Shown here one piece after another: positions 6,467 through 32,592 of a stretch of 64,000 bases of DNA. The notes under the pieces are model-generated. The model was not told the DNA's origin. It saw nothing but the letters and a program-made list of their open reading frames with translations, and did not search any database. The translations under genes were made by a program, and so were the position numbers. Source of the DNA: Vulcanimicrobiota bacterium (lineage in GTDB: Bacteria; Vulcanimicrobiota; Xenobia; Xenobiales; JADMJV01); assembly GCA_050250895.1 (NCBI GenBank), contig JBFWNU010000004.1, positions 1 through 64,000 on the forward strand. Direction: 5' to 3'. Positions within the stretch are counted from its first letter, which is position 1. Every line of letters starts with the position of its first letter.

Positions 6467-6538
6467 ATTGGCGCGCCTCGCCAGAAGGTTAGGCTAGGCA
6501 GCGCGAGAATGCTAGGCAAGCCTAATTTCGTGAGGACG

Positions 6539-6763: not shown

Positions 6764-7029
6764 AACTGTTTCGTGTCATCGCCTATTGCGAGGGGGCATC
6801 GTTCTTGATTCTGCTCCTCATCGCCATGCCCCTGAAGTATCTCTACGCCATGCCGATGGCGGTGCGGGTGGTCGGAACGGCCCACGGGCTGCTCTTTATC
6901 GCCTATTGCCTTCTAGGGGCCCTGGTCTGGCGAGAACAGGGCTGGTCCCTTCGCACAGCGGCGCTCGCTTTCATCAGCGCCTTTCTACCCTGCGGTCCGT
7001 TCATTTTCGACCGCAAGCTGCTGAGTTAG
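6757..7029 (+). CDS. DUF3817-family integral membrane protein
   Basis: FRVIAYCEGASFLILLLIAMPLKY...GTAHGLLF...LPCGPF signature. Confidence 0.85.
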   Translation: MLKLFRVIAYCEGASFLILLLIAMPLKYLYAMPMAVRVVGTAHGLLFIAYCLLGALVWREQGWSLRTAALAFISAFLPCGPFIFDRKLLS

Positions 7030-8006: not shown

Positions 8007-8071
8007 ATGACCTCTCCGAATCTGTGGGACCACCCCCACCCTAACCCAAGCCCATAAAAAAAACCTGAAGG

Positions 8072-9475
8072 TCAGCTGGTGGAGAATTCCACCATCGTCT
8101 CTTCCTGAACCAGATCCACCTCGTCAAGTAGCTTCTTCTCGCGCCAACTTCCGTGCGAGAACCAGAGCAAAGCCACCAACATGGCCACGACATTGGCGAT
8201 CGGATAGGACCACCAGATCCCGATCTCGGCTAACGGCGTGCGGTCGGAGAGCACGTAGGCCACCGGGAACTGAAACACCCACAACGACAGAATCGATAGA
8301 ATCATCGAAATCATGGTGTTGCCCGAGCCACGGAAGGCCCCGTTGAGCACTTGCTGCACGCCGATGCAGCCGAAACTCAATCCCACGATCCGCAAGAAGA
8401 CTCCGGCCTGAGAAATGACCGGGCCCGAATCGGGAATGAAGAAGGCGGCGATGGCGTCGCTACCCAGATAGGTCAGGCCGCCGATGGCAGTCAGCACCAG
8501 AAAGCCGCTCCAGCCGGCCAGTTTAACCGCTTCCGCGGCCCGCTCTGGCCGGTTGGCTCCCAGATTCTGTCCCACCATCGTCGAGGCGGCCATGGACAGT
8601 CCTAGGGCCGGAATGATGACAAATCCCAACACCCGCGAGCCCACGCCGTAGGCGGCCACCACCGACGTGGGGTAGTCGGCCACCAGGAAGGCCATCATGG
8701 TGATTCCCAGAGCTCGACTCGATTGCTCGATCGAGGCTGGCAGACCGAGAAAGAACATCCGCCGGAGCAGGTCCCAGCGCGGCTTGAGATTGGCGAAAGA
8801 CAGCTGGATTCCGGCCCGACCGGTGAACAACAGCCAGATGCCCGCCAGGGCGGCCAGTGACTGGGTGCAAAGGGTGGCCACCGCCGCTCCGGCCACTCCC
8901 ATATCGAGGGTGAAGATGAAGAACGGATCGAGCACCAGGTTGAGCAGCACCGTCGAACCCACGATATAGAGCGGTGTGACCACATCGCCCACGCCTCGCA
9001 TCAGCGATTGGAACACGGCGAAGATGAACAGCGTCGGCAGAGCAATGAAGGTCCATTGCAGATAGATGGTGGCCTGACTGATGAGGTCGGCGTCGGCGTT
9101 GCGGACCATCAGGCTGATGATGGGTCCCGAGATCAGATAGCCTAGCAGCGAGACCAGGCTGGCCGCCCAGAGCATGGCCAGCAGCGTTTGCCCAGCCACC
9201 AGATTCACCCGGGCACTGTCTCGGCGACCCTGGTATTGAGCCACCAGGATGGTGCCGGCGATGGCTAACCCGCCCCCCAGGGAGATCATCAAGAACAGGA
9301 TGGGAAAGCTCAAAGAAACGGCGGCCACGGCCGTTGGTCCGACCCGGCCCACCCAGACGGTGTCGATGAATTGATAAGCCGTTTGCAGCAGGTTGGCCAG
9401 GACCACCGGTCCCGCCAGAGAGAGCAGGCGGGACAGCACCGAACCGGTGGTCATGTCACGCGCTGGGGTTTTCAT
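8072..9475 (-). CDS. MATE family efflux transporter
   Basis: DMTTGSV, DTVWVGRVG, RGVGD, NLVLDPFFI, GQNLGA; ATGA overlap with the terC stop. Confidence 0.95.
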   Translation of the reverse strand: MKTPARDMTTGSVLSRLLSLAGPVVLANLLQTAYQFIDTVWVGRVGPTAVAAVSLSFPILFLMISLGGGLAIAGTILVAQYQGRRDSARVNLVAGQTLLAMLWAASLVSLLGYLISGPIISLMVRNADADLISQATIYLQWTFIALPTLFIFAVFQSLMRGVGDVVTPLYIVGSTVLLNLVLDPFFIFTLDMGVAGAAVATLCTQSLAALAGIWLLFTGRAGIQLSFANLKPRWDLLRRMFFLGLPASIEQSSRALGITMMAFLVADYPTSVVAAYGVGSRVLGFVIIPALGLSMAASTMVGQNLGANRPERAAEAVKLAGWSGFLVLTAIGGLTYLGSDAIAAFFIPDSGPVISQAGVFLRIVGLSFGCIGVQQVLNGAFRGSGNTMISMILSILSLWVFQFPVAYVLSDRTPLAEIGIWWSYPIANVVAMLVALLWFSHGSWREKKLLDEVDLVQEETMVEFSTS

Positions 9476-10401
9476 GTTCGCTCTTCGTGCTGAGCCCGCA
9501 GGCTGGCCCACACCGAGGCACCGATACATGCCACGATGACACCGATCGAAAGCGCTGGCGAGATCTCGATCACACCGTCGAGCAGGATTTTAATCCCGGC
9601 GAAGGCCAGCACTGCTGCCAGTCCATAGTGAAGGTAGCGAAACTTGTCGAAACTGGTCTGGAGATAAAGATAGAGTGCCCGTAGGCCTAGAATGGCGAAG
9701 ATGTTCGAACTGTAGACCAGAAAACGGTTGTGAGTCACCGACAGGGCGGCCGGCACCGAGTCCACGGCGAACATGACATCGGTGATTTCGATCGCCAGCA
9801 AGGCCAACAGCAAGGGACTGGCTGCCCATCTACCGTCTTTTTCGGCCAGGAAGTTGTGGTCTTCCACCCTCTTGGTCACCGGCAGGTGGTTCGACAACCA
9901 TTCCACCGTGCGACTGCCTTCCTCTTCACCCGGATTCTTGCGAGCCGAACGCCAGGCCCCATAGAGGAGGACGGCGGCGAAGAGATACGAGACCCAGTTC
10001 CAACGCTCGATGGCTTCGACGCCGAGAAAGATGAAGACTCCACGAAAGACAACCGCCCCGAGGATGCCCCAAAAGAGGACGCGATGCTGGTATTCTTCGG
10101 CGATCCTCAAGCCTTTGAAAATCACGTAGAAGAGGAAAAGGTTATCCAGGCTGAGGCCCTTCTCCATGGCATAGGCTGCATAGTACTCCTGAGCCATGTG
10201 CCCGTCGCCGACCATCCAAACGAACCCGCCAAATCCGAGACCTACGCAGACCCAGGCAATGGTCCAATAAAGGTTCTTGCGATGGAGTTGCTTGCCCTGA
10301 CGTTGTTCGCCGTGGTAGCTCCACAAATCGACGGCAAGCAAGACGAGAACGGTGACGCCAAAGACGAGCCAGGCCCAACTGGGGATTTGTGTCTGGTGCA
10401 T
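9472..10401 (-). CDS. TerC/Alx family metal homeostasis membrane protein
   Basis: EKGLSLDNLFLF, QHRVLFWGILGA, DVMFAVDSVPA, SSNIFAILGLRALY. Confidence 0.95.
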   Translation of the reverse strand: MHQTQIPSWAWLVFGVTVLVLLAVDLWSYHGEQRQGKQLHRKNLYWTIAWVCVGLGFGGFVWMVGDGHMAQEYYAAYAMEKGLSLDNLFLFYVIFKGLRIAEEYQHRVLFWGILGAVVFRGVFIFLGVEAIERWNWVSYLFAAVLLYGAWRSARKNPGEEEGSRTVEWLSNHLPVTKRVEDHNFLAEKDGRWAASPLLLALLAIEITDVMFAVDSVPAALSVTHNRFLVYSSNIFAILGLRALYLYLQTSFDKFRYLHYGLAAVLAFAGIKILLDGVIEISPALSIGVIVACIGASVWASLRAQHEERT

Positions 10402-10503
10402 TCTTCAAGGTTAGGCCACACAGCCTTGCTCCAATAGGAACCGCCCGGATGCCGAGGGGGCACTCGGATGGCCTCGGCCGTGCTCTTTCTGCTAGACTAG
10501 GGC

Positions 10504-11586
10504 GTGCGAATCGAAGAGTTCGACTTCAAAGTCGGCAGGAGGTTGCCCTGGCGGTTCTGGTTGAGTCGAGGCAAGGCACTGCCCGAGAACGCTTTGCCAG
10601 ATTTCTCGGCGGTGGGAAACTTCACCCACCTCCCGCCGGGCCAGGTGCACCTGGCCGGGCAAGTCCGAGAGGTGGAGGGCTTTCCCCACTTCGAGGTGCA
10701 CCTGTTCGCCCACCAGCGTTTGCCTGACCCCTGGGAGCGGGCCTCTTCTCAGCTGGCCGGTTTGTTCTTCCATGCGCTAAGAGCAAACCTTGGGCGGAAC
10801 TACTTCGCGCCCCGAGCGGCTGTGGCCCGGCTGGGATTCCTCGGGCGAAAAGATCGGCTCGAGCCGCAGGAGCGCGGCGAGTTGGCCTTTCTTGAGCACG
10901 CTCCCATCTTCGAAGACTGCCGTAACGAGAAGCGACTCTTGCGTCTACAAGACTTGCGTCGGCTGCGGGCGGTGCGAATGGTGGCGCTGAGTGAAGCCCT
11001 CAAACTGCGCGGCAAGGCGGGCCACCCCGAGATCTGCTTTCTCGAACAGACTCCTTCGCTAGCCTTCATCCTCAATCACTATCAGCTGCCCGACCAGCCA
11101 GGCTGGGCCAGCCAGCAGTTGGCTGAAGCCCTGGCCCCGTTGGTACTGCCTTCCGAGCGCGAGCAAGCCCATCACGTGTCGTTCGGACAACGAACACGCA
11201 ACGGGCGCCGCTGGGAGTTTGCCGGGCACCGTGGCTCGCTCGTGGTCGACCTGGAGCGCGGGGTGGTCGAAGGGTTCGACAAGAGCTTCTCGATCCCGGG
11301 GCTGGTCCGGGTCGACATCGACGAAGAAGAGATCTTTGGCGACACCAAGTATCACAACCTCTTCTATCTGGCCCTGGCCGATTCGGAAAAGACATTGGTG
11401 GTCTACGATCGCTATGTCACCTACCACGAGGGCGGCCCGGTGCAGGCTGACCTCGACCGCCGTCAGGACCAGGCCAAGGCCTGGCTCCACGATATTCCGG
11501 GCTTGCTCGGCTGCGCGCAGACTCGCCTGGCGCGCCACGACCTCATAGCGTCTCGCGAAAATGGCTCAGCAGATCCATGGTGGTGA
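10504..11586 (+). CDS. Hypothetical protein
   Basis: 360-aa ORF with plausible composition; TAGACT 5 nt upstream of the GTG. Confidence 0.6.
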   Translation: MRIEEFDFKVGRRLPWRFWLSRGKALPENALPDFSAVGNFTHLPPGQVHLAGQVREVEGFPHFEVHLFAHQRLPDPWERASSQLAGLFFHALRANLGRNYFAPRAAVARLGFLGRKDRLEPQERGELAFLEHAPIFEDCRNEKRLLRLQDLRRLRAVRMVALSEALKLRGKAGHPEICFLEQTPSLAFILNHYQLPDQPGWASQQLAEALAPLVLPSEREQAHHVSFGQRTRNGRRWEFAGHRGSLVVDLERGVVEGFDKSFSIPGLVRVDIDEEEIFGDTKYHNLFYLALADSEKTLVVYDRYVTYHEGGPVQADLDRRQDQAKAWLHDIPGLLGCAQTRLARHDLIASRENGSADPWW

Positions 11587-11968
11587 CCAGGCCGGTCAGC
11601 TTGCCATCCTTGGTCACCACGACACGGTGAATGCCATTCTCGAGCATGAGATCGAGCACCTCGGCCAGGCTTGAATCCTCGGTGGCATAGAACACATAGG
11701 GCGTCATAATGTCGGCCACCACCAATTCGCAGCCGACTTCGGGCGGATCGCTGGGCTCGAGGAAAAGGGAGCGGTAGAAGGCCCTCGGGTCGCCTGGCAA
11801 TCGAGAGACCAGATCGGCCTGCGATACCAGACCGAGCAACTCGCCCCCAGCCCCCACCACCGGAAAACCTGAAACGTGGTGCCGGGTAAAAAGCGGACCG
11901 AGCTGCTCGATGGGCAGGCCGGGCGGCACGGTCATCACCTGGCGGGCCATAATCGAAGCGATGGTCAT
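11543..11968 (-). CDS. CBS domain pair protein
   Basis: IMARQVMTV, SGFPVV, VADIMT, IHRVVV, GLVTTMDLL; AAGGAG RBS. Confidence 0.9.
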   Translation of the reverse strand: MTIASIMARQVMTVPPGLPIEQLGPLFTRHHVSGFPVVGAGGELLGLVSQADLVSRLPGDPRAFYRSLFLEPSDPPEVGCELVVADIMTPYVFYATEDSSLAEVLDLMLENGIHRVVVTKDGKLTGLVTTMDLLSHFRETL

Positions 11969-19910: not shown

Positions 19911-22355
19911 ATGCGCTCTGGCCCGCATGTACCGACCCTTTTGGTTGGGCTGCTCGTGCCGGCCCTGGTGTCATTATGCTGGTTGGTGGGGCCTGTAGAA
20001 CAGCTCTCGGTTGCTTTGCTCGTCTTTCTGGCCGCGGCCGTCATCCTCGAAATACTGGCCATCCCGCTCCCTGGCTATGGGCTCTTCTCGGCTGCCTTTC
20101 CCGTCTATCTGGCCATGGGGTTGCAACCTTCCGGGGGTGGAGCGGCCGCCCTCACCATGGCGGGGCTAACCTTCGCCCGCGGGCGGTTGCGGGATCTGGG
20201 CGAACTACCCGGGCGCTTGCGCGGTGTTCTGCTCGATCTCGGAGCCGGCCTGTTAGGTCTGACCATCGCCCTCGTCATCCAAGACGCGAACCGGTTGCCG
20301 ATCCTGGCGGGGATCCTGGGCGGGGCCATCTGGTTGGGCTTTCACGAGGGTCTGGCCCTGGGACTGGCCGAGCCCCTCGACGCCAAGGAATACAATGAAT
20401 GGCGACCCATCTATGCCCGCCTGCGGGGCCCTCGTGTCGGTCTTGCCTTGACCGCCCTGGTGCTGGTCGAGGTGGCCGCCGTCAAACCGTGGGTCACGTT
20501 GACCCTGCTTCCCCTGCTGTGGACCACCCACTTGACTGCCTACAACACGGTTCATCGCACCTATGTCGAAGAGGTCGATCACGTTCGCGAACAACTCGAC
20601 GACTCGCAACAAAAACTCGATCGGGCCCTGGGAAGAGCCGAACGAACCAACCAACAGCTCAAGCTCAGTCAAGACGAACGCGTGCTGCTGGAAGAATATC
20701 CCAAGGCGTTGGGCTCGACTCCAAGTCTGGAGCGGGTCATCGACGTAACTGTCGCCCTGGCCCGTCGCATCGGCCGGGCCGAACACGTTGTCCTGTTTAG
20801 CCTCGACGAGGGTGAGTTGATGCCGGTAGCCCATCACGGTGGGCATCGCAACCTGGTCGAAGAGGCTCGCCTGGGCGGCAAGCGTGAACCGGTAGTGGAC
20901 CAGGCCCGGGCCGAAGGTCGCTGGCAGACAGCCTTTCTGCAGAAAGTGCCCGGGCGGCTGTTTCCGGGCGACGAGATGGTCGCGGCCTTTCCGATGGGCG
21001 ATGACGTCCTCTATCTCGGTCGGGCCCGTCAGGAGTTTTCCGAGCACGAACTACGCTTGCTGGCTCTACTGGCAGGGCATGCCTCGTTAGCCCTCGAGTC
21101 GGCTCGTCGCTATCGAGCCGAACGGCAAGCCCTCGATCAGCACGCCCAGGTCAACCGCGCTCTTTCAGGCTGGGTGGACCGGCTCGAAAGCCTCATGAAC
21201 TGGGCCGTCACCACTGCCGGAACTCTGGACCAGTCGGCCATCAGTGAGTATCTCGAACAATCGTTGTGCTCGGTCATTCCTCATCAGGACGGCATGTTGT
21301 TGCGCTATGGCGACAAGTGGAGTGTCACCCGGGTCTGGCCGGAGGCAATCTACGACCTCGGAGCCGTCATCGAGCTGGCCGAGTCCGTCCTGGCCGGCGG
21401 CCGCTGCCTGTTGCTCGACGATGTCAACCGTTCCCGCTTTTCCCGGCCCTTTCCCGACACCGTCAGCTTGCTGGCCGCCCCGCTGACCTCCGAGTCAGGA
21501 CCGATCGGCGCCATCCTGCTGGGGGCCCCCGAGGCCGACCACTACAACCGCCAACACCACGACCTGCTGGTGTTAATCAGCTCCCACGCCTCGGTGGCCT
21601 ACTCCAACGCGCTCCACGTCGAGGCCATCATCGAGGCCCGCCAACGCCTGGAAGAATCTCAGGCGCAGCTTATCCAGAGCGGAAAAATGGCCGCCGTAGG
21701 CGTGTTGGCCGCCGGTGTAGCTCACGAACTCAACACCCCCCTGGGGGCCATCCAACTGGCGGTCACGGCCGCCGCAGAGCAGCTAGAGGAAAAGCCGCAG
21801 GCGGCCCTCCGAAAGCTCGAGACAGCCGACAAGGCGGCCCAACGCGCCCGCGACATCATCGATAAATTACTGGTCTTCTCCCGCCGCTCCGATCAGGTCG
21901 AAGAGACGGTCGATCTCGAAGAGGTGGTCCGATCGACCCTGGACCTGGCCGAACTAAAGTTGGCTCGCGACGGGGTCAAACTCGACGTCTACACCCAGCC
22001 GGGCCTGAACTTGCTGGGTGACGGCAACGAGATTCAACAGGTCCTGCTCAACCTCGTTCTCAATGCCCGCGACGCGGTGCTAGCTTGCGACCAGGGTCAG
22101 CGACGCATCGTCATCACCACCCAGTCGACCGGCGACGAAGTGGTGCTCACCGTCAACGATACCGGCGTCGGCATGACTCCCGAGCAGACGGCGCGTATCT
22201 TTGAACCTTTTTTCACCACCAAGCCTCTGGGACAGGGCACAGGCCTGGGTCTAGCCGTGAGCCATCAGATCGTGGCTAAACACCGAGGCCGCTTCGAGGT
22301 CCAGTCGCGCCCCGGCTCAGGCAGCGCTTTCTCGGTTTTCTTTCCCGCCGCCTAG
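19911..22355 (+). CDS. Membrane-anchored GAF-GAF sensor histidine kinase
   Basis: N-terminal TMs; two GAF-like regions; AHELNTPL H-box, [29 protein letters not shown]; start uncertain. Confidence 0.92.
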
Positions 22356-23452
22356 AGTTTTTCGATCAGCTGCACCACCGGCAGCATCGCGGCCAGCACG
22401 ATGCCACCCACCACGATGCCCATGAAAGCCATCATCAAAGGTTCGAGGATGGCCGCGAAATCGGCCAGGGCCAGGTCCACATCCTCTTCGTAGAACTTGG
22501 CCAGATAGCTCAAGGTGCGCTCGATGTCGGCCGACTCTTCACCGGCCATCGTAAAGGAAGCCAGCGGCTCGCCGAAAAGCGGGGCCTTGCGCATGGCCTC
22601 ATGCAACAGCGAGCCCGACTCCATCTCGGCGGCGATGAGATGCAACTCGCTGGCCATCATCACGTTGTCGGTCACCCCACTCGAACGGCGAACGGCCGGT
22701 GTTAGAGGCATTCCGGCCTCGAGCATGGTCACCAGCGCGAACAGAATCTTGGCCGTCTCGGTCTTGCGATAGAGTTTGCCGGCCACCGGAATCAGAAACG
22801 GGATAAGGTGAAGGAACTGGCGCAGCTTGCGCCGCTTACGGATAGCCATTGCGATCCAGGGAGCAAAAAACCAGCCCACCAGAGCCAGCACCGTCCCCAC
22901 CAGCACGATCGGCCCCCCAAACGAGCGCGCCTTCAAAAGCATGCGGGTGATGAGCGGCAACTGCAGGTCCATCTGCTCGAAAACGGGCAGGGTCAGGGGG
23001 ATGACGTAGCCGACCAGAAAGCCGATGCAGACCATGCTCATGACGAAAAGCACGGCCGGGTAAGTCAGAGCGGCACTGATCTTGCGTCGCAGGTCGAGAT
23101 GCTTCTCGGTCATCTCGGCCAGTTTGTCGAACACCATACTGAGCTGGCCGGTGCCCAGGCCGGCCGCCACCAGCCCGACATAGACGGTCGAGAACGCTTT
23201 AGGGTGAAAGGTCATGGCCAGATCGAGTTCCTGACCTTTGTCGACCCGGGCCACCACGTCGTCGAACGCCTGGCCGAGCCCACCCCCAAAGGTTTCAGCG
23301 CAGAAAGACAGACAGTCCTGAACCTGGATCCCGGCGTTGAGCATGGCCGAGATCTGGCGGGTCGAGGTGACCAGATCAACCTGGTTGACCTTGGCCGCGG
23401 GCCGCAGAATCTGAGAGATTCTTCCCCGGAGTTCATTACTTCCGATGGCCAT
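22352..23452 (-). CDS. Type II secretion F / type IV pilus platform protein (PilC/GspF family)
   Basis: TRQISAMLNAGI, HPKAF, ALTYP, AGEES, LEPLMM. Confidence 0.9.
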   Translation of the reverse strand: MAIGSNELRGRISQILRPAAKVNQVDLVTSTRQISAMLNAGIQVQDCLSFCAETFGGGLGQAFDDVVARVDKGQELDLAMTFHPKAFSTVYVGLVAAGLGTGQLSMVFDKLAEMTEKHLDLRRKISAALTYPAVLFVMSMVCIGFLVGYVIPLTLPVFEQMDLQLPLITRMLLKARSFGGPIVLVGTVLALVGWFFAPWIAMAIRKRRKLRQFLHLIPFLIPVAGKLYRKTETAKILFALVTMLEAGMPLTPAVRRSSGVTDNVMMASELHLIAAEMESGSLLHEAMRKAPLFGEPLASFTMAGEESADIERTLSYLAKFYEEDVDLALADFAAILEPLMMAFMGIVVGGIVLAAMLPVVQLIEKL

Positions 23453-23561
23453 TTATTGACGTTTCTGAATAATCGGAAAGGGACCTGCAAAAAACGGCAG
23501 AGGACGACCTGGATTTTCCGTAGAAGTATGCTAAGTTCATTGCAGTAACACAATTCGAGGT

Positions 23562-23978
23562 GTGATGGGTCGGTCATTCAGGGGTTTTAACCTGCTCGAG
23601 ATGATCATCGCAGTGACGGTGTTTAGCACCATTGCTGTCGCTTTGATGGGCATTTGGAGTCACAACGCTCGGGTCTTGCGCCACGACCAGGACCGGGTGA
23701 TGGCGGCCGTCATTGCCGAGAATATCATGGAGTCACAGATCTCGTTAGGCTTCAAGGCCGAAGACATCTACCCGACAGACTTCACGGTTACTCACTACGA
23801 CAACGACCAACCGATGAGCGTGACCTATAAGTACGAGGTCAAGGTCGAAGACACCAGCACCGGCCCAGAAGACGTCTCTCTCAAGCATTGCGTGGTAATC
23901 GTGCGGTGGAGCCCACCGGGAACGGACTTGCATGAAGAGCAACTGCTGCTCGAGTCGATGCTCTCCTGGCAGAGCTGA
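23562..23978 (+). CDS. Prepilin-type minor pilin/pseudopilin (PilV-like)
   Basis: RG|FNLLEMIIA type III signal with E5. Confidence 0.85.
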   Translation: MMGRSFRGFNLLEMIIAVTVFSTIAVALMGIWSHNARVLRHDQDRVMAAVIAENIMESQISLGFKAEDIYPTDFTVTHYDNDQPMSVTYKYEVKVEDTSTGPEDVSLKHCVVIVRWSPPGTDLHEEQLLLESMLSWQS

Positions 23979-24546
23979 CGCCTTCACCCTGCCCGAGGTC
24001 ATGGTGGCCGGCAGCTTGATGCTGCTGGTCTTGGGCGCCGTTCTTCGCCTGATGATCGCCGGCAATGCGTATCTTAGCTTGCAAGAGGGCCGGACCGAGC
24101 TCCAGAAGGATGTCACCCTGGCCTTTCTCTGGATGTCGCGCGAACTGCGCGAAACCGACGCCGACAGCATCCAGGTCGCCCCCGACGGGGCGGTGTTCGC
24201 CAGCCCCCGCGACTTCAGCGGTGAGGTCAAATTCGACTCGGCCGGCCGCATGCTCTGGCAGAAATACATCTGCTACTACGTAGAAGAAGTGGCCGGCAAG
24301 CCCTGCCTGGTGCGCAAGGCGGTGGCAATCAGCCCGCCGGCGGTCAGCCCTCCGCCCGCCCCCCCGGTGGACTCGGTCCGCCTCGACAACAGTATCAACT
24401 ATCAGGTGAAAGCTCGCAACGTGAAGAGCGTCACCTTCAACAACAGCGTCTCTCCCATGGAGTTCACCATCTTTGGCGAGATCGTCAACCGGCGTGGTCG
24501 CAAATACGGTATGGAGCTGAAAACGCGTGTCTATTTCAGGAACTGA
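23932..24546 (+). CDS. Prepilin-type minor pilin/pseudopilin (PilW/GspJ-like)
   Basis: A|FTLPEVMVAG followed by a hydrophobic helix; overlaps the previous gene. Confidence 0.82.
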   Translation: MKSNCCSSRCSPGRADAFTLPEVMVAGSLMLLVLGAVLRLMIAGNAYLSLQEGRTELQKDVTLAFLWMSRELRETDADSIQVAPDGAVFASPRDFSGEVKFDSAGRMLWQKYICYYVEEVAGKPCLVRKAVAISPPAVSPPPAPPVDSVRLDNSINYQVKARNVKSVTFNNSVSPMEFTIFGEIVNRRGRKYGMELKTRVYFRN

Positions 24547-26122
24547 TCAGCGCCGGCAAAGACTGCGGCGCGGCATGTCGGCGCTGTTGTTGGTGATTCT
24601 AGTGGGGGCCATCTTCTTTATGATGACGGCCCAAACTGGCGTTTTCACGATGCAAGTGCAGCGGGTGGTGGCCAAGAACTATTGGGAGAAGAAATGCCAG
24701 TATGCCGCCTACGCCGCCCTGCAGTATGCGGTCGACCGCCTCAATGATGACGACAATTGGGACCCGGGTGCCTCCATCGATCGCTGGCCGATGCCCAACG
24801 ACCCCGAGACGACCTACACCCTCAAAGTGAACAACAACCATAGCGGCGCGTTGGGAGATCCTTTCGTGGCCCCTGACGGCGTCATCGTACCCAAGGGCCT
24901 GGTTTACCTCAGGGCTTACGGCGAGGTCCGTAAAGGCAAAATCGCAGGCATCAAGACGGCCGCCGTGGCTTCGATGGGGTTCTACGGCGACACGGCTTTC
25001 AACCACGCCGCCATCGGCACCGCCTCGATCACCCTCGACAACAACTCCTTCACCGACGCCTACAAATCGAGCGCCGGCCCATACGTGGCCAAGCCGCCGC
25101 CAACCGTCGACACGGCTGCGGTTCCTCCGAAGCTGGACAAGCCCAGTCCCAACTTGAAGGGCTCTATCTGCACCAACGGCACCAACTCTGGCATCAACAT
25201 CCTCAACGGCTCCTACGTCCTGGGCAACGTCGAGGTGGGAGCCGGGTCGGTCCTCAACCAGGCCCTGGTCTACGACCAATTTACCGACGCTACCAGCGCT
25301 CAGGGCATCCCCTACACCGGGGTCGAGCGCATCCGCGACAAGCTCAAGCGTATCCCCCGCTTCGCCCCCCCGTTTCACCCCAACGGGGCTACGGCCGAAG
25401 TCATCGTGACCGGCATCCAGACGGTCGCGCCGGGCGCCTACCGGCGGATCGAGGTCCGACCCGGCGGCACCCTGCAATTACAGGCGGGCTCCTACTTCGT
25501 GTCCGAAGACTTCCTCATCGATGGGGGGGTGGTCACCACCAGTTCTTTGCCTGACAACGACAACGCCCTCTACTGCTACGTCGGCGAGGCCTTCACCATG
25601 CGTAATGGAGCCACCCTCAACGAAGACGGCATCCCCATCGCGTTCCGACTTTACTTCGTGGGCAACGGGGCTCCCGGCTTTGTCAATCTGAAGTTCGATA
25701 TGGATCAGAACAGCCGGGCCTGGCTGGTCTGCTTGGGCCGCTTTGCCGACGCTTTGCTCGACAACAATAGTCACCTCTACGGCGGCATTAAAGCCCGCGA
25801 GGTGCTGGTCAACAATTTCTCGGCCATCCACTATGATACCACTCTCTTCGAAATTCCCGCCAAGGGCGAGGTGGCCTGGACCCTGGTTGGTCTGATGGAC
25901 GAGGGCTTTGACCTGGCCGTCGAGGATCCGTCCAGCGACCCCTACGGCGGCGGCGGGGTCGGGGGCGGCGATGACGACGATGATGACGACGATGACGATG
26001 ATGACGACGATGACGACGACGATGACGATGATGACGATGACGACGATGATGATGATGATGACGACGATGATGATGACGATGATGACGACGACGATGACGA
26101 TGATGATTTCCAGGAATTCTAG
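24527..26122 (+). CDS. PilX-like large minor pilin with a beta-rich adhesin-like domain and a 46-residue poly-Asp tail
   Basis: RRG|MSALLLVILV (no E5, as in PilX/GspK); Asn/Gly-rich beta region; GAT/GAC x46 at 25970-26107. Confidence 0.78.
   Translation: MSISGTDQRRQRLRRGMSALLLVILVGAIFFMMTAQTGVFTMQVQRVVAKNYWEKKCQYAAYAALQYAVDRLNDDDNWDPGASIDRWPMPNDPETTYTLKVNNNHSGALGDPFVAPDGVIVPKGLVYLRAYGEVRKGKIAGIKTAAVASMGFYGDTAFNHAAIGTASITLDNNSFTDAYKSSAGPYVAKPPPTVDTAAVPPKLDKPSPNLKGSICTNGTNSGINILNGSYVLGNVEVGAGSVLNQALVYDQFTDATSAQGIPYTGVERIRDKLKRIPRFAPPFHPNGATAEVIVTGIQTVAPGAYRRIEVRPGGTLQLQAGSYFVSEDFLIDGGVVTTSSLPDNDNALYCYVGEAFTMRNGATLNEDGIPIAFRLYFVGNGAPGFVNLKFDMDQNSRAWLVCLGRFADALLDNNSHLYGGIKAREVLVNNFSAIHYDTTLFEIPAKGEVAWTLVGLMDEGFDLAVEDPSSDPYGGGGVGGGDDDDDDDDDDDDDDDDDDDDDDDDDDDDDDDDDDDDDDDDDDDDDDFQEF
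25970..26107 (+). repeat. Coding GAY x46 tract (poly-aspartate)
   Basis: 138 nt of irregularly mixed GAT and GAC codons. Confidence 0.97.
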
Positions 26123-26125
26123 ACC

Positions 26126-26797
26126 ATGAGATTTGGCTACTGGACCGCTCTTCTGGCGGTCGTTTTTCTGCTGGCTGGATGCTCCAAGCCTAAGGAATAC
26201 GAAAAGAAGGCCCTGCTGCGAGAGCAGTTAATCGGCAAATGGAACGCCGAAGACGGCTGGGTCGAATTCACCAAAGGCGGGCTGGTAGGACGCATGGACC
26301 GCGGTTCGGGCTGGGCCGCCAGCTACAACCTGGTCGACGGAACCCGACTCGAAATCACCGAGCCCGGCAAAGAGGGAGAAGCCGTCGTCTGGAACGCGGA
26401 CGTGAGCGGGGATAAACTCAAGCTGGTACTCGACAGTGGGACCATCGAAGAATTCACTCGCGAAACCCCGCCAGCGGCGCCAGAAGATGCCAAACTGGTG
26501 GGTCTGTGGGGGTCCACCAGCGTCGGCGAAGGACGAGAGAACCTGATGGAGTTCACCGACCACGGCACGTTTGTGTCGTTTCGCTGGATCTCTTCGGCCG
26601 AGACGGGGGACAAATATAAAGTCGGCGAGACGGGCAGTTATAAGGCCATTGGCGGCAAACTCACCCTCATGGGCGCCCGCAAACGCGAGTTCACCAAAGA
26701 ACTCGAGTATAAGATTGACGGGTCGGTGCTAGAAGTCTTGGGAATGTGGAAAGACAAGGACGGCAACCCCACTTCACGTTCATATCATCGGCGTTGA
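26126..26797 (+). CDS. Lipoprotein with two lipocalin-like beta-barrel repeats
   Basis: LAGC lipobox; LIGKW...EFTKGG and LVGLW...EFTDHG repeats. Confidence 0.75.
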   Translation: MRFGYWTALLAVVFLLAGCSKPKEYEKKALLREQLIGKWNAEDGWVEFTKGGLVGRMDRGSGWAASYNLVDGTRLEITEPGKEGEAVVWNADVSGDKLKLVLDSGTIEEFTRETPPAAPEDAKLVGLWGSTSVGEGRENLMEFTDHGTFVSFRWISSAETGDKYKVGETGSYKAIGGKLTLMGARKREFTKELEYKIDGSVLEVLGMWKDKDGNPTSRSYHRR

Positions 26798-28203
26798 AGC
26801 CTTTTCTTCAGGGCCTCTTCGCTAGCGAAGAGGTCGAGCAAGACCGCCGGCTGCGCATGCTTCTGGCCGCCCTTCTGCTTTACTACTACGTCACCTTTTA
26901 CAACTGGTGGAAGGGCGCTACTTCAGCTCTGTCGACCAAGGGCACCGAGTCATTCAACTACGTGCCCACCTGGGTCTTCGAGCACTGTCGCGGCCTCATT
27001 TTCTTAGACCACTTCCAAACCAAAGTCTACCTCTGGCTATTGGGCATGTTGGCCCTGGCCGGCGTCTTCTGGCTGTTTTATCGCGACGACACGCTGGGTC
27101 CGATGGTCATTCTAGCCTTTCTTTTTGCCAACAAGCTCTTCTTCTACCTGATGGATTTGCGCTTAATGGCCAACTTCCACCATCTCCATCTGCTCTACAG
27201 CTTCGTCTTTCTCATCTCGCGAGCCAAGCTATTCTACTTTCGGCTCGGCCTGGCCACCTCATATTGGTTGTCGGCCTTCATCAAGTTCACTCCCTCGTGG
27301 CTGTATGGCGACTATTTCAACTCGGTCCTGGGCAAGTTGCCGCTGCTGCCTCACAACGCGACGGTGGTCATGGTGCTCATGCAGGGAGTGATCATCATGG
27401 AGGTGGTGGGTCCGTTTTGCTGGTTCTCGAAGCGGGCCTGGCTACGCAACTTCTCCCTGGCCCTTTTTGGTGCATTTCACGCCTACTCGGGACTGCTGGT
27501 TGGGTTCAAGTACACTACCTTGATGTTCAGTTGCCTGGTGCCGGCCTTTCTCGACTTCAAGGCGCCGATCCATCAAGGCTATCAGTTCCAAAGGCGCGAT
27601 CTGGCCCCCATCGGCTTTCTGACCTTGGCCCTGCTTGGTGGGCTGTATCACTTCACCATTCCCGGCGACGTGCGCATGACGGCCGAGGGCCGTTACTTGG
27701 GGGTCTTCATGTTCGACGCAAATCGCTCGGTGCTGTTTCACGGCAAAGTCGTCAAAGGCAAGAAGACCTATGAGTTCTGGGTCAAGCGTCCCTGGCGCAA
27801 CGGGGCCATTCTCGAAGACGGCAGCATCGAATCCAACACCGAATACCAGGTCTGGGGCTCGCTCAAAGAAGGTGACCACGTGCGCCGAAAGCGCAAGATT
27901 CTGGGTTCGCTGCGCGACGGAGACCAGATCGTCTTCAACCCCAGACTGTTCACCAGCGCCCAGGTGAGAACTTTCGGCGACCCCTACCTCTACTACTTCT
28001 GGGCCAGGGAGCTTCAACGCCGCTACAAGCCCGACAAGATCTCGCTGGAACTGTTCCAGCAACTCGACGGTCATGTCGACTCGTTCCAGCTCGTCGACAT
28101 CGAGGATTTCGCCGCTCTCGACCCTCACTATTCGGGCTTTCGCCACAACGAGTGGATTAAGCTGCCCGGCCCCGATGCAGAGCAGAGCTACCGATGGTGG
28201 TAA
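26794..28203 (+). CDS. HTTM-domain / vitamin-K-dependent gamma-carboxylase-like protein
   Basis: ANFHHLHLLY, SYWLSAFIKFTPSWLYG, AFHAYS, MTAEGRY...MF, DPYLYYFWAREL, FRHNEWIKLP; TTGA overlap with the previous stop. Confidence 0.75.
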   Translation: MKPFLQGLFASEEVEQDRRLRMLLAALLLYYYVTFYNWWKGATSALSTKGTESFNYVPTWVFEHCRGLIFLDHFQTKVYLWLLGMLALAGVFWLFYRDDTLGPMVILAFLFANKLFFYLMDLRLMANFHHLHLLYSFVFLISRAKLFYFRLGLATSYWLSAFIKFTPSWLYGDYFNSVLGKLPLLPHNATVVMVLMQGVIIMEVVGPFCWFSKRAWLRNFSLALFGAFHAYSGLLVGFKYTTLMFSCLVPAFLDFKAPIHQGYQFQRRDLAPIGFLTLALLGGLYHFTIPGDVRMTAEGRYLGVFMFDANRSVLFHGKVVKGKKTYEFWVKRPWRNGAILEDGSIESNTEYQVWGSLKEGDHVRRKRKILGSLRDGDQIVFNPRLFTSAQVRTFGDPYLYYFWARELQRRYKPDKISLELFQQLDGHVDSFQLVDIEDFAALDPHYSGFRHNEWIKLPGPDAEQSYRWW

Positions 28204-29900
28204 GACTGGTAGTCATGGCCCTGGTCGTAGCTCTGACCGCCTGTAAGCCACCGTCGGACGGTCCCCACGACTATCTGGACACCGCCCTGATCCTGCGTCC
28301 TCGCTGGAATGGCTCATCCGATCGCATCGCCTTTCTCCAGCTCGAGAACGGTCGGCGCCAGGCTTTGCTCAGCCGCCCGGACGGGGGGACCGAAGTGCTG
28401 GCCGGCGGGCCTGGCGAGCAGATCCGTTTTGTCACCTGGTGCCCTGGTGACCAGGGCCTGGCTCTGGGTCTGGTCCGCGCGGGCAATCGCAATCAGCAAC
28501 TGTATCTGGCCGATCTCGAAGGCGGCCCCCTCAAGCCCCTGGCCGTCAATCCCGACGCCTTTCACGAGCTCGGGACGTTTTCCCGGGACGGCACGCGCGC
28601 CACCATCTCCTCCAACGCCCGGCTGCCGGACCGCTACGACATCCAACTACAAGACATGTCCAGCCAACAGCGGCGAACCATCTTCCAGGGCGAGGGACGA
28701 TGCCTGGGGGTCCGCTTTGCAGGCAAAGACACCCTGCTCATCTCCGAGGACACCTCGCGCACGTCCGAGCTGCTGCATCTGCTCCATCTCGACACGGACA
28801 AGGTGCAAAGCCTGGGCACCCGCCAGGAGAGGCATCACTACCAGAAAGCCACTTTTCGCGGCCGGGACCTGATGGTGTTGACGGACCGAGGCGCCCAGCA
28901 GCGCTACCTGGGTCGGTGGGCCCTGGACACCGACCAGCTCGAACCGATGCTCGACCTGCCGGGCGAGGTCGTCGACTACGCCTGGGACCAGGACCGGGAT
29001 GAAGTGGTGTTGCAGCTCCAGAGCGAGGGCGCCCACCATCTCTATCTTCACGACCTTCGCGCCGGAAGGACTCGCCCACTCAAGGACCTTCCCGAGGGCT
29101 ACATCCGACATCTTCGCTATCTAGGGCCCCGCACGATCGGAATGCTCTATAGCCGTCCCGACCTCCCCCCCACCCTCATGCGCTGGGACCTCGCTCAGGG
29201 CTCCCCTACCCCGGTTTTGTCCGGCCAGGCCGCCAGCTTGCCTGTGGTCAGTCCACGTCGGGTCCACTTTCACAACCGAGAACTCGAACTTGGCGCCTGG
29301 CTGTATCAAGGCCACGACACCAGCCAGGGAGGGCTAATTTATCTGCGCCATGAGCCGTCCGAGCAGGCCTATCTTCACTTTGATCCGGTGGTGGAATGGT
29401 GGGCTAGCCGAGGCTTCGCCGTGCTGGTACCGGATGTCCGCGGCAGCTCTGGCCGAGGACGCGACTTCGAGGCTCTCGACGATGGGCCGGGGCGCCAGGG
29501 AGCGCTCGAGGATGTGGTGGCTGCGGCCGATTATCTCAAAAGCCAGGGGGTAGAGCGGGTGGCCCTGTTCGGACGAGAATACGGTGGCTACCTGGCCATC
29601 GGCGCCCTGGCTCGGTCGCCCCAAAGCTTTACGTCGGCGGTGGCCCTGGATGCGGATCTCGACCTGGACTGGCTGATCGAAGACGCCTATCCCTGGCAGC
29701 GCCGCGAATGGCGAGAGGAACTCGGCGACACGGCTGCTCTGTCACTGCTGCCCGAACTAGGCCCGGCCCGCCTCAAATGCTTGTTGCTGTATAGCCCGAG
29801 GCACAAGAGTCGCTACCGGCAACTGCCCGGGGCCCAGGAGTGCGCCGGACTAAGACCCGCTCTTACCCAGGCTCTGGCCTACCTGGAGGGCGCTCGATGA
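28194..29900 (+). CDS. S9 (prolyl oligopeptidase-like) beta-propeller + hydrolase-fold lipoprotein, probably inactive
   Basis: LTAC lipobox; PDVRGSSGRG; nucleophile elbow reads GREYGG instead of GxSYGG. Confidence 0.78.
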   Translation: MVVRLVVMALVVALTACKPPSDGPHDYLDTALILRPRWNGSSDRIAFLQLENGRRQALLSRPDGGTEVLAGGPGEQIRFVTWCPGDQGLALGLVRAGNRNQQLYLADLEGGPLKPLAVNPDAFHELGTFSRDGTRATISSNARLPDRYDIQLQDMSSQQRRTIFQGEGRCLGVRFAGKDTLLISEDTSRTSELLHLLHLDTDKVQSLGTRQERHHYQKATFRGRDLMVLTDRGAQQRYLGRWALDTDQLEPMLDLPGEVVDYAWDQDRDEVVLQLQSEGAHHLYLHDLRAGRTRPLKDLPEGYIRHLRYLGPRTIGMLYSRPDLPPTLMRWDLAQGSPTPVLSGQAASLPVVSPRRVHFHNRELELGAWLYQGHDTSQGGLIYLRHEPSEQAYLHFDPVVEWWASRGFAVLVPDVRGSSGRGRDFEALDDGPGRQGALEDVVAAADYLKSQGVERVALFGREYGGYLAIGALARSPQSFTSAVALDADLDLDWLIEDAYPWQRREWREELGDTAALSLLPELGPARLKCLLLYSPRHKSRYRQLPGAQECAGLRPALTQALAYLEGAR

Positions 29901-31567
29901 AACGGTTATGGTTGGTGCTGCTGCTGCTGGCGGGGTGCGCCCGCGAACCCCGCTTGCCCAGTCACCTCGAGGCCGATCCGCCGCGGCCGGAGGCGGTGGC
30001 CGAACTCGCCGGCCAACTGTTCGCCAACCTGACGACCGGCCAGTCACTGGTCAGCGGCGACGCTCGGGCCGAGCGCATCTTGCTTTTGAGTCTCAGCGAC
30101 GGTCGCCAATCCAAGCGCTATCAGGCCCGGGCCGAGAGTCTGTACGCAGCCGCCCAGACCCTGGCCGAACAGGCTCGGAGCGATGGCCTGCGCCCGCTCT
30201 GGCTGCGACTGGACGTAGTGGCCGATCTAGCCGATATTCCCGACGAGCCTCCCGCGCTCGAGCGCGGGCTGGCCGGCCTGGCTGCCGACGGAAGCCCGCC
30301 TCGGTTCTGGCTGCCGCTCGAGGTGCCTACCTCGGTGCTCTCCAACGACGGCGAACTCAATCTCGAGCGGCTGAAAAAGCTCGACCCGGATTGTGAGCGC
30401 TGGCTCAACTTCGGCACGGTGGCGGCCTTCAGCGACGCCCAGGGAAGCTTTCCGCTCTATCGCGGGCATGCGCTCGAGGCTCCGGCCCGAGGACCTGACG
30501 AACTGCTCGAGGCGGCCCGGCGCGGCGGTGATTATCTATTGCGAGGACTGAGTCCCGAGGGCCGCTTCGCCTACTGTTACCATCCCACCCGAGATCGTTT
30601 CAGCACCGACTACAACATGCTCCGCCACGCCGGAGCCGTCTATGCTTTGCTGGAACTCTATCAAGAGACCAGACAACCCGAGTACCTCGAGGGGGCGCGT
30701 CGGGGCCTCGAGTTCATGATGTATTCGGTGGAAGAGTCGAGAAAGTTCAACTCGACCCGGGTTTTGGTGGATGATGGTTCAGTCAAGCTCGGGGGCAACG
30801 CCCTGGCCATTCTGGCTCTGGCCCGGTATGTCGACGTCACCGGCGAACGCAGATGGCTCGCCGAGATGGAAGATCTGGCCGAATGGATGGTCCGAAACCA
30901 GAGCCCCGACGGCCGTTTTCGCGTGCACAAGGAGAATTATCCGGCCGGCGAAGACAGCGGGTTCCGCTCGGAGTATTACCCCGGTGAAGCCCTGGTGGCC
31001 CTGGTCAATCTCCATCGCCTCGACCCTGATGAACGCTGGTTGAAGGCGGCCCGTCGAGCAGCCCGCTACCAGATCCGTCGGGCTCGTCGCGAAAAACGCC
31101 CGCCGCATGACCACTGGTTGATGATCGGTCTGGAACAGCTCTATCGGATCGACCCGGACCCCAGCTATCGCGACTACGCTTTTGACCTCTCGGAGATGAT
31201 CATGACCAGCCAGAAAACGGCTCAGGCCCGCCCGGATTGGGACGGCGGCTTCTATACTCCGCCGCGCTCCACTCCCACCGACATCCGGCTCGAGGGTCTC
31301 AACGCCGCCTGGGCGTTGGCCGTGCAGGCCGGCGATGGAAAGCGAATAGAGCGTCTGAGAAGTTCGGTGGAGCGGGGCTTAGCCTTTAGCTCGCTTTGTG
31401 AGGTGACTCCTGAGAGAGCAGCGCTACTGGTCAGGCCAGACTATTGTCGGGGAGGGGTAATGCGAGGCCTGGCCGACCCCGAGATTCGCATCGACTACGT
31501 TCAGCACCACATATCGGCTTTGCTAGGAGCCTATCGGCTCACGAAACCAGCGCCAGCCAAACCGTGA
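29897..31567 (+). CDS. Lipoprotein with a six-hairpin glycosidase-like (alpha/alpha)6 domain
   Basis: LAGC lipobox; YNMLRHAG, KLGGNALAILAL, YYPGEA, HDHW, RIDYVQH; ATGA overlap. Confidence 0.7.
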   Translation: MKRLWLVLLLLAGCAREPRLPSHLEADPPRPEAVAELAGQLFANLTTGQSLVSGDARAERILLLSLSDGRQSKRYQARAESLYAAAQTLAEQARSDGLRPLWLRLDVVADLADIPDEPPALERGLAGLAADGSPPRFWLPLEVPTSVLSNDGELNLERLKKLDPDCERWLNFGTVAAFSDAQGSFPLYRGHALEAPARGPDELLEAARRGGDYLLRGLSPEGRFAYCYHPTRDRFSTDYNMLRHAGAVYALLELYQETRQPEYLEGARRGLEFMMYSVEESRKFNSTRVLVDDGSVKLGGNALAILALARYVDVTGERRWLAEMEDLAEWMVRNQSPDGRFRVHKENYPAGEDSGFRSEYYPGEALVALVNLHRLDPDERWLKAARRAARYQIRRARREKRPPHDHWLMIGLEQLYRIDPDPSYRDYAFDLSEMIMTSQKTAQARPDWDGGFYTPPRSTPTDIRLEGLNAAWALAVQAGDGKRIERLRSSVERGLAFSSLCEVTPERAALLVRPDYCRGGVMRGLADPEIRIDYVQHHISALLGAYRLTKPAPAKP

Positions 31568-32120
31568 AAACCAAGACCACGAAGCCCACTCCGTAGAGAA
31601 TGACCTTGGCCATAGAGCGGGCTTCAGCTAAGGACATCACGGTTGATTGGGCAGGTAGGGGCGCCGGGGGCTCGGGTGGCCCGACATCTTCGAGGTCCTG
31701 GTAACGGCTGACAAAGGCGCGAGCCAGACGCTCGGCCGCCTCGCGGGTCTTGTAATCGAAGGCGCCGGGCTTGCTGTGGTCGCAATAGATAAAGCCCAGG
31801 GCTCGACCGCGCACATCCAACAAAGGCACGCACAGAACGCAGGGGTGGGTTGCGCCATCGGGCTTGAATTTGGTGTCCTTCTGGACGTCGAGAGTAAACA
31901 CGGTGCGGCCGGTGCGCATGACGGTCCGCAGCACGTCCTGATTGACGGTGGCCTCGCCCCAGACGCTATCGTCGAGGCCATAGGTGGCCTGCCCGCCGGG
32001 TTGGGTCGTTGGCTTGGGCTCGAAGTTGACCGCCACCCGCTCGGCCTTGAAATCGACGGCCATAGCGCGCACGGCTGTTTTGACCAGCTTGGTAAGATCT
32101 TGAGCCTGCTCGACCTTCAC
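31539..32120 (-). CDS. GAF domain protein with a C-terminal TM anchor
   Basis: VLCVPL...LGFIYCD...F GAF core; hydrophobic C-terminus; GTG start inferred. Confidence 0.75.
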   Translation of the reverse strand: MKVEQAQDLTKLVKTAVRAMAVDFKAERVAVNFEPKPTTQPGGQATYGLDDSVWGEATVNQDVLRTVMRTGRTVFTLDVQKDTKFKPDGATHPCVLCVPLLDVRGRALGFIYCDHSKPGAFDYKTREAAERLARAFVSRYQDLEDVGPPEPPAPLPAQSTVMSLAEARSMAKVILYGVGFVVLVFTVWLALVS

Positions 32121-32196
32121 AAACTGGATGTTTTGCTCGCGAGGCAGACAGGTCCTGCCGCCAGGACCCATCTGGAATAGGGCGAAATCAGCCCGC

Positions 32197-32592
32197 ATGC
32201 GACGCCTCTTAGCGATTCTTCTCTGCACCCTGACGATGGCCGCCTGGGCCGCTCTGCCCCCGCTTTCAGACGACGATCGAAAAGACGTGGCCGACCACAT
32301 CCTGGTGGGTCAGGTTCACAACGTCTCGTCGAAAGAGGTCGAAATCCAAGACGGGACCAACTTCGTCTACGCTCTGAATTTTCGAGTTGACGCTCGTGAA
32401 AAAGGCAGCTTGCGCCCGGGTCTCACCCTGAGCATCTCATGCAAACAGACGGGCCAACGCCCTCAGGGCTGGGCGGGTCCGCAAGGCCAAAACGAGATCC
32501 CGCGCGAGGGTCAGAAAGTCAGAGTCTTTTTGCGCGAGACTCCCGAGGGCACCTTCAGCCTGCTCGAGCCCAATGGTTGGGAAGCCCTCTAG
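32197..32592 (+). CDS. Hypothetical secreted protein (OB/NTR-like)
   Basis: Signal peptide MRRLLAILLCTLTMAAWA; ADHILVGQV. Confidence 0.7.
   Translation: MRRLLAILLCTLTMAAWAALPPLSDDDRKDVADHILVGQVHNVSSKEVEIQDGTNFVYALNFRVDAREKGSLRPGLTLSISCKQTGQRPQGWAGPQGQNEIPREGQKVRVFLRETPEGTFSLLEPNGWEAL

Follow-up and report, generated by a model that had tools for sequence, protein, structure and literature searches.

A pseudopilin cassette that combines an Asp-tailed large subunit with a membrane enzyme related to the vitamin-K-dependent carboxylase

Gene content of the cassette and the poly-Asp tail

The window analysed here, i.e. the whole 64,000-nucleotide stretch at positions 1 to 64000 of contig C4 of genome G000 (9.5 Mb, 99.6% complete, of the Eremiobacterota/Vulcanimicrobiota type), contains one of the many GspF-linked pseudopilin cassettes of this genome, in which a large pseudopilin ending in a run of 46 Asp residues is encoded together with a polytopic membrane enzyme predicted to share the fold of the gamma-glutamyl carboxylase GGCX. 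In the list of open reading frames (ORFs), the cassette consists of eight ORFs, at the same coordinates as in an earlier, sequence-only reading of this DNA: a GspF/PilC gene on the minus strand and seven genes on the plus strand (23562 to 31567). The GspF/PilC-type platform protein (366 aa, 22352..23452) is encoded divergently from the cassette genes and matches PF00482 (E 2.6e-49) and the GspF model TIGR02120 (E 1.6e-65, below the cut-off of that model). The plus-strand genes encode, in this order, a small GspI-like minor pseudopilin (gene 1, 138 aa, 23562..23978), a second pseudopilin-like protein (gene 2, 204 aa, 23932..24546), a large GspK/PilX-like pseudopilin with a C-terminal tail (gene 3, 531 aa, 24527..26122), a lipoprotein (223 aa, 26126..26797), the membrane enzyme (469 aa, 26794..28203), an S9-family protein of the acylaminoacyl/prolyl oligopeptidase-like type (568 aa, 28194..29900) and a six-hairpin (alpha/alpha)6 glycosidase-like lipoprotein (556 aa, 29897..31567). 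With the only usable starts, that of the enzyme gene being a TTG codon at 26794, the successive junctions are overlaps of 47 and 20 nucleotides (nt), a gap of 3 nt, and overlaps of 4, 10 and 4 nt, so that the tight packing noticed in the sequence-only reading stands, but not its statement that the seven genes are joined at 3 nt or less. A promoter and terminator scan found sites no commoner than in shuffled sequence; the packing of the seven plus-strand genes suggests that they may be co-transcribed.

The first three of these genes recall the GspI-GspJ-GspK tip complex and the PilX-type minor pilins by their order (small, small, large), by the adjoining GspF gene, by the prepilin N-terminal domain of gene 1 and by the GspK-type N-terminus of gene 3, which lacks Glu5. 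Gene 1 scores 23.3 bits with the prepilin N-terminal domain model TIGR02532, over the cut-off of 16.3, and also matches the GspI model TIGR01707 below its cut-off (E 1e-7); its orthologues are present in L001, L015, L016, L017, L020, L022 and L033. Gene 2 has no match to a hidden Markov model (HMM) in Pfam and NCBIfam scans and was recognized by eye from the prepilin motif AFTLPE (AFTLPEVMVAG in the translation), its orthologues coming after the GspI-like gene in seven other loci. As for gene 3, whose N-terminus (RRGMSALLLVILV) was also assigned by eye, it reaches 26.8 bits with DUF7305 for a cut-off of 27, a domain matched by 5 of the 9 family members, and its relatives give weak matches to the N-terminal T2SS_GspK model (E 2.3e-4 and 0.035, below cut-off). 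Searching the PDB with the pseudopilin profile returned only low-complexity artefacts. Of the three prepilin-type genes of the sequence-only reading, gene 1 is upheld by an HMM, gene 2 has a motif read by eye, and gene 3 an N-terminus read by eye and a score just below the cut-off.

Unlike the GspI-GspJ-GspK and PilX systems, the cassette is devoid of any major pilin, ATPase or secretin gene, its subunits score below the cut-offs of these families, and one of its subunits bears a long disordered C-terminal tail. The rest of the window contains no further secretion or pilus machine genes, including none of PF01478, PF00437 and PF00263, and the parts required for assembly would be provided by the adjoining GspF platform and by genes located elsewhere in the genome, where the prepilin peptidase PF01478 has one match, the ATPase PF00437 (T2SSE) 28 and the secretin PF00263 two. 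By contrast with type II secretion systems and type IV pili, the 68 GspF-like loci of this genome, that of the window among them (tblastn, E<=1e-10, at least 280 aa aligned), stand against only two secretin matches, which makes the platform-plus-pseudopilin cassettes of genome G000 an extreme expansion. At least two frames with a prepilin motif are found within 7 kb at 22 of these 68 loci.

The C-terminus of the 531-aa protein reads GGGGVGGG, 46 Asp and FQEF (25946..26119), the Asp run itself, at 25970-26107, being exactly as long as previously claimed. The last segment conserved in alignments ahead of the tail is AWTLVGL (25874..25894). The run is encoded by 25 GAT and 21 GAC codons in irregular order and is thus not a pure trinucleotide repeat, which would point to selection on the protein rather than to replication slippage. 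In a six-frame scan for acidic and Asp repeats it is the longest acidic run of the 9.5-Mb genome, the runner-up among eight such frames in all being D21E3. Moreover, only two of the 68 GspF loci, in the window and on contig C9, have within 7 kb a long frame whose C-terminal tail is of low complexity, and HTTM-superfamily genes are held by precisely these two cassettes. Two other acidic runs, at C2:57730 and C5:86677, belong to unrelated proteins and were set aside. On the minus strand of contig C5 (85142-90295), a YD/RHS-repeat-like frame of 1717 aa contains an internal G5-D12 insertion followed by a long His/Gly/Asn-rich repeat; a GspF paralogue (C5:92887-93861) is located about 3 kb away.

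A membrane enzyme related to GGCX and HTTM proteins

The enzyme encoded at 26794..28203 belongs to no Pfam or NCBIfam family in direct scans, the only Pfam match at E<=10 being a chance one to a YgaP-like model. Likewise, a genome-wide scan with the HTTM model PF05090 matched three other genes and not this one, so that of the HMM checks proposed in the sequence-only reading, that for prepilins was positive for gene 1 and that for HTTM negative. The 88 homologues retrieved by word search are all unnamed or 'hypothetical' and without Pfam domain, the closest (90% identity) originating from a metagenome-assembled genome (MAG) of Candidatus Eremiobacteraeota. Three alignments were used to place the enzyme: A1, with 46 sequences of its own family; A2, a broader set of 122 sequences; and A3, the canonical Pfam-HTTM family, for which a paralogue encoded in the same genome served as starting point. 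In an exhaustive profile search, the A1 family comprises 722 representative clusters at E<=0.001.

The affiliation to GGCX, which had been proposed by eye, is without direct HMM support but is borne out by structure and profile comparisons. The AlphaFold model of the enzyme has a mean predicted local distance difference test (pLDDT) of 92.1 and a predicted template modelling score (pTM) of 0.91, and all 15 Foldseek matches at E<=0.001 are human gamma-glutamyl carboxylase, the sixteenth match having an E value of 0.13. Residues 12-467 of the model match the fold of GGCX 58-511, i.e. through the extracytoplasmic C-terminal domain, whose retention had been anticipated, although identity to GGCX is only 12-15%. 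At the sequence level, the A1 profile had no PDB match at E<=10; 7 of the 10 matches of the A2 profile at this threshold are GGCX, with a best E value of 2.9. The link passes more clearly through the HTTM family: hhalign aligns A1 with A3 at 97.1% (E 6.4e-11, 275 columns) and A2 with A3 at 96% (E 4.9e-9), and A3 itself matches GGCX chains at E 1.8e-9. Taken together, these data indicate that the enzyme is, as judged from the model and the alignments, a GGCX-fold protein and a remote member of the HTTM superfamily missed by standard annotation. It differs from GGCX in its length, since its 469 residues align only to positions 58-511, in the candidate residue to be modified (Asp, not Glu), and in a host genome where no VKOR was found.

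The active site was examined both through direct alignment with GGCX and through the HTTM family. By both routes, Lys164 (codon 27283..27285) and Trp169 align with GGCX Lys218 and Trp223 at the same spacing, which confirms that the Lys of the 'AFIKFTPSWL' motif corresponds to the catalytic one, and Glu203, Phe228-His229 and Met306 fall in the same register as GGCX Asp263, Phe286-His287 and Met401. According to PMC12647623, Lys218 is the catalytic base, Trp223 a stacking Trp, Asp263 an adjacent acid, and Phe286 and Met401 are among the residues that sandwich the naphthoquinone. All these enzyme positions are invariant in A1 and, with the exception of Glu203, at least 90% conserved in A2, and the window enzyme keeps every family-invariant residue. 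Asn127 also aligns with GGCX Asn159 in the alignment with an E value of 2.9, and the residues of the Glu and CO2 sites of GGCX appear to be matched only approximately. Canonical HTTM enzymes share the Lys/Trp/Glu/His core (K175, W180, E222 and H250 in A3), and fusions to DCC thiol-disulfide oxidoreductase domains (PF04134) are found in some HTTM proteins. Regarding the cofactor, the genome has two genes for PF02621, a marker of the futalosine pathway of menaquinone synthesis.

Association of enzyme subfamilies with tail types

Scans of genome and metagenome collections yielded 39 enzyme loci in addition to the window. Nine loci, namely the window, L001, L015, L016, L017, L020, L022, L028 and L033, are of the cassette type and hold homologues of the pseudopilin, lipoprotein, S9, six-hairpin and GspF genes; an Asp-rich tail is present in eight of them, and the arrangement is conserved across several genera. 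The tail takes several forms. Besides the D46 run fused to the window pseudopilin, L015, L017 and L033 have a fused (GD)n tail of about 45 Gly-Asp repeats ending in GGW, and L020 a fused (ADAS/ADAG)n tail ending in GGF, while in L001, L016 and L028 the tail is a separate small protein ending in GGGG-D30/31-SDPF. In all three split cases, the gene of this poly-Asp protein comes directly after the enzyme gene, starting about 40-50 nt downstream, and its product has an N-terminal hydrophobic, signal-peptide-like segment. The large pseudopilin of these three loci stops just ahead of AW[ST]L.G[LI], a segment that is carried by the small protein instead, so that the arrangement would represent a split of the last strand plus tail. 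It was considered whether this segment might be a propeptide-like recognition element, and the idea was dropped because paralogues whose tails are unrelated (C9 and L066) conserve the same position; the segment seems better explained as the terminal strand of the pseudopilin domain, which would have become separate in L001, L016 and L028. Across the Asp-rich tails, Asp is the sole constant residue, and the tails of A1 cassettes are without Cys. The enzyme gene occurs in 10 of the 401 genomes sampled from the phylum of the window, all of them from two large-genome families, and on the enzyme tree the cassette label requires three changes, a Verrucomicrobiota clade being sister to one of the cassette groups.

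A sister cassette with canonical HTTM enzymes is found in the same genome (L027, G000:C9:118000-134000, positions 5151-11668). It contains a GspF paralogue, an HTTM gene (513 aa), two pseudopilin genes, a GspK/PilX-like gene and a second HTTM gene (473 aa; 43.5 bits with PF05090), so that two canonical HTTM genes flank three pseudopilin genes, and at the end of its large subunit (Gly-Thr-Ser)n precedes GGCGCGGGSMKVNASV. Canonical HTTM genes are present in 21 of 40 genomes of the order. Among 16 canonical-HTTM loci selected non-randomly, four for HTTM pairs 3-4 kb apart and 12 for long flanks, the pseudopilin trio was recovered in 11 (L091-L098, L100, L101 and L103). The large subunits of all 11 end in tails rich in Gly/Thr, in Ala/Pro or in Pro ((GT)n, (AP)n, Pro-rich or GTS), none of which is Asp-rich, and eight of these tails terminate in a Cys-Gly motif (e.g. 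GGCGCGCGGGSM). Asp-rich tails are thus found in 8 of the 10 A1-containing cassettes with a readable tail versus none of the 12 cassettes with canonical HTTM only (the 11 plus C9), the two exceptions on the A1 side being L022, which is tail-less, and L066, whose tail is Thr/Pro/Ala. The latter (G073:C11:97500-117400) is a hybrid with a PilX-like subunit ending in (TTPA)n, two canonical HTTM genes, a six-hairpin gene, two pseudopilins, two more membrane proteins and a divergent A1 gene. Gly-rich stretches occur in every tail type. The enzyme subfamily therefore co-varies with tail chemistry, and this is what speaks most strongly for a functional connection of the two. In other words, canonical HTTM proteins resemble the A1 enzymes in being their homologues and in lying in the same kind of cassette, beside a GspF gene and a GspK/PilX-like pseudopilin with a low-complexity tail, whereas A1 stands apart as a subfamily without Pfam match that is associated with Asp-rich, Cys-free tails.

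The remaining genes follow the same division, since the lipoprotein, S9 and six-hairpin genes go with A1 and are absent from all 11 canonical-HTTM cassettes sampled. The lipoprotein, identified by eye from an LLAGC lipobox, gives weak matches below cut-off to DUF5640 (E 0.0013) and TIGR03066 (E 6.3e-7), is single-copy in the genome and has orthologues in L001, L015, L016 and L028. The S9 protein matches PF00326 (E 4.5e-17). Alignment to 5l8s and 3o4j reveals that its nucleophile Ser is replaced by Glu462 (GREYGG instead of GxSYGG), and it is also without the C-terminal D..RVP and EGH region that holds the Asp and His, so that an S9 catalytic triad is lacking. The orthologues in L001, L015, L017 and L033 retain GxSYGG, D..RVP and EGH, suggesting that the ancestral cassette would have encoded an active peptidase; the earlier description of a dead S9 homologue is consequently correct for the window and for no other copy. 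The last gene reaches 25.4 bits with PF07944 (GH127) for a cut-off of 24.9, none of its individual stretches passing, together with weak C-terminal matches to LanM/LanKC, and its Atlas feature neighbours are GH127/GH76/C5-epimerase-like, six-hairpin glycosidase-like clusters, which lends weak support to the (alpha/alpha)6 lipoprotein of the sequence-only reading. A six-hairpin gene lies beside A1-family genes in L001, L008, L015, L017, L020, L033 and L066, L008 being outside the phylum. In this Elusimicrobia MAG (L008, 2320-14418), five tandem enzyme paralogues adjoin the six-hairpin homologue, with no pilin genes detected at the locus.

Candidate reaction and alternative explanations

What can be regarded as certain is the existence of the cassette and of its tail, the fold of the enzyme and the conservation of its quinol site. 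The explanation that best covers the whole, and which is put forward tentatively, is that the cassette enzyme modifies the Asp-tailed pseudopilin, perhaps by Asp carboxylation. In this scheme, the three minor pseudopilins would assemble into a tip complex of the GspI/J/K type by means of the prepilin peptidase, ATPases and secretins that the cell shares among its cassettes, and the largest subunit would export the tail with its Gly-rich linker, 46 Asp and aromatic C-terminus. By homology to GGCX, the active site of the enzyme would lie on the periplasmic (outer) side of the membrane, on the path of the tail, and a strong base produced with menaquinol and O2 would serve to modify the tail-bearing subunit, the most likely reaction being the addition of CO2 to tail Asp residues to give malonate-type, cation-chelating side chains. 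The parts of this scheme do not have the same weight. An action of the enzyme on the tail-bearing subunit, on the outer side of the membrane, is about as probable as not; that it carboxylates the Asp residues of the tail is doubtful, the points in favour being the menaquinone pathway marker of the genome and the constancy of Asp in the tails. In its most specific form, A1 would be a menaquinone-dependent protein carboxylase with the Asp or Gly-Asp tail as natural substrate and either a beta-carboxyaspartate thread or a Gly-derived aminomalonate as product, which we consider unlikely. If that were nevertheless true, the HTTM-superfamily enzymes of this order would be dedicated pseudopilin-tail modifiers, with subfamilies matched to tail chemistry.

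Several observations weigh against carboxylation of the tail. The direct match of the family profile to GGCX (E 2.9) is not significant alone, and in this same alignment His129, Tyr301 and Tyr240 are one position off GGCX His160, Tyr395 and Phe299; moreover, VKOR (PF07884) was not found in the 99.6% complete genome. GGCX acts on Glu and not on Asp. A Leptospira carboxylase orthologue is said to be an epoxidase devoid of carboxylase activity, which our literature search did not confirm. The carboxylase orthologue MloH of Streptomyces, involved in malonomycin synthesis, does act on an aspartyl residue, as stated in the sequence-only reading, but this residue belongs to a small-molecule intermediate and, according to the sources, the reaction is an alpha- and not a beta-carboxylation (PMC12186529; bioRxiv 10.64898/2026.08.19.745780); the comparison with the window enzyme is by description only. 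With respect to synteny, Asp-rich-tailed pseudopilins accompany the enzyme at eight of nine cassette-type loci within a bacterial order, whereas pilin genes and Asp-rich ORFs are absent from the 31 other enzyme loci (17 from genomes and 14 from metagenomes, many on short contigs), which belong to Verrucomicrobiota, Elusimicrobiota, Acidoferrum or are unassigned. An unlinked Asp-tailed substrate in Verrucomicrobiota was considered and dropped, a run of 12 Asp codons being absent from the five enzyme-bearing genomes searched (four Verrucomicrobiota and one Elusimicrobiota). The cassette loci come from few lineages, with about 4-5 independent ones on the tree. L022 is a cassette without tail, and the L066 family member is a divergent one (35% identity) in a cassette with a Thr/Pro/Ala tail. 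Asp runs also occur in proteins of enzyme-less genomes (L070, L071 and L079). Finally, the tails of most related cassettes contain no acidic residue at all and might be just stalks: neutral tails in the canonical-HTTM sister cassettes suggest that a low-complexity tail is a general pseudopilin feature rather than specifically a carboxylation substrate, and the same co-variation that links enzyme and tail implies that the tail need not be acidic.

In this context, a tenable explanation, though one short of probable, is that the Asp tail stays unmodified and serves as a polyanionic stalk or as a thread that binds cations, one variant among the Gly/Thr-, Ala/Pro- and Pro-rich stalks, and that the enzyme is merely co-regulated and acts on something else, for instance on a quinone or lipid, on the lipoprotein encoded beside it or on a protein whose gene is not linked. 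It would account for the neutral low-complexity tails of the 11 canonical-HTTM cassettes sampled and of C9, for the 31 loci where the enzyme family is found without pilins or Asp-rich ORFs, and for the Asp runs of enzyme-less genomes. The (GD)n tails also resemble the Ser-Asp stalks of the staphylococcal Clf/Sdr surface proteins, which likewise carry a long Asp-containing dipeptide repeat and are modified by dedicated enzymes. This resemblance is in composition only, the L015 tail matching the Clf/Sdr stalk models at E 5e-10, far below the cut-offs, with no homology and with different anchoring and machinery. An unmodified stalk would leave unexplained, however, why Asp-rich tails are restricted to A1 cassettes (8/10 versus 0/12), why the poly-Asp gene directly follows the enzyme gene in the three split cases, and why both tail-bearing cassettes among the 68 GspF loci hold HTTM-superfamily genes.

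It is also conceivable, if rather doubtful, that the enzyme acts on the tail-bearing pseudopilin without carboxylating Asp, through a quinol-driven oxidation or epoxidase-only activity, through alpha-carboxylation of the Gly linker to aminomalonate, or through a joint action with the S9 peptidase and the six-hairpin protein by which the aromatic C-terminus is processed or anchored. The Lys/Trp/Glu/His core kept by canonical HTTM enzymes that nonetheless adjoin tails without Asp or Glu would speak for such a reaction, as would the Cys-Gly motif at the end of 8 of the 11 canonical-cassette tails, the fusions of some HTTM proteins to DCC domains, the Gly-rich stretches of every tail type, the alpha-carboxylation described for MloH and the apparently active S9 peptidases of the orthologous cassettes, whereas the Cys-free tails of A1 cassettes, of which Asp is the only constant residue, speak against it. 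As for a functionally meaningless adjacency within a decaying cassette, the tail being a tolerated low-complexity expansion, the loss of the S9 nucleophile and C-terminal Asp/His region in the window copy alone would be in line with it, but seven intact and tightly packed frames, an enzyme with all its family-invariant residues, an Asp run with mixed codons and an arrangement conserved across several genera make it very improbable.

Whichever the reaction, the parts of the cassette are of known kinds, while the literature searched holds no description of their pairing, of the unannotated GGCX-fold family or of pseudopilin cassettes with such tails. No published account of an HTTM and pilin pairing was found there, and the HTTM-domain papers found do not, in their accessible parts, deal with pili. 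To our knowledge, MloH is the only bacterial enzyme of this kind with a described reaction, and this on a small molecule. For a poorly understood enzyme class, the cassette supplies a candidate protein substrate that is exported, of simple chemistry and genetically linked to the enzyme; it also reveals a sizeable unannotated enzyme family and an undescribed architecture in which pseudopilin cassettes with long low-complexity tails have their own HTTM-type membrane enzymes. If tail carboxylation is real, it would represent the first case of vitamin-K-type carboxylation of a protein in bacteria, would bear on CO2-fixing enzymology and on the binding of cations or minerals by cells at a distance, and would name an enzyme for malonate-type residues of poorly understood origin. 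Beta-carboxyaspartate is such a residue. The origin of aminomalonate is described as poorly understood as well in PMC12186529.

A few minor observations concern Asp repeats elsewhere and the borders of the cassette. A (Gly-Asp)7 codon pattern was found in one genome only, as a hexanucleotide repeat without clear gene, and was set aside; in Luteolibacter marinus (L044, G001:C18:223870-226175), a (GGGGAT)n/(GGCAGC..)n repeat without clear coding frame lies far from the enzyme gene. At L070 (G017:C1:8929-11973), a large protein that is open at the start of the locus has an internal run of 17 Asp and no detectable homology to the window pseudopilin, and none of the 19 genomes searched from its host family gave an HTTM-superfamily match. 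On either side of the window cassette, a gene converges on it: a sensor kinase of the GAF-GAF-HisKA-HATPase type (19911-22355, plus strand) ends 4 nt inside the GspF gene, and a GAF-domain protein (31539-32300, minus strand) shares 29 nt with the 3' end of the six-hairpin gene. These two flanking proteins are possible regulators of the cassette.

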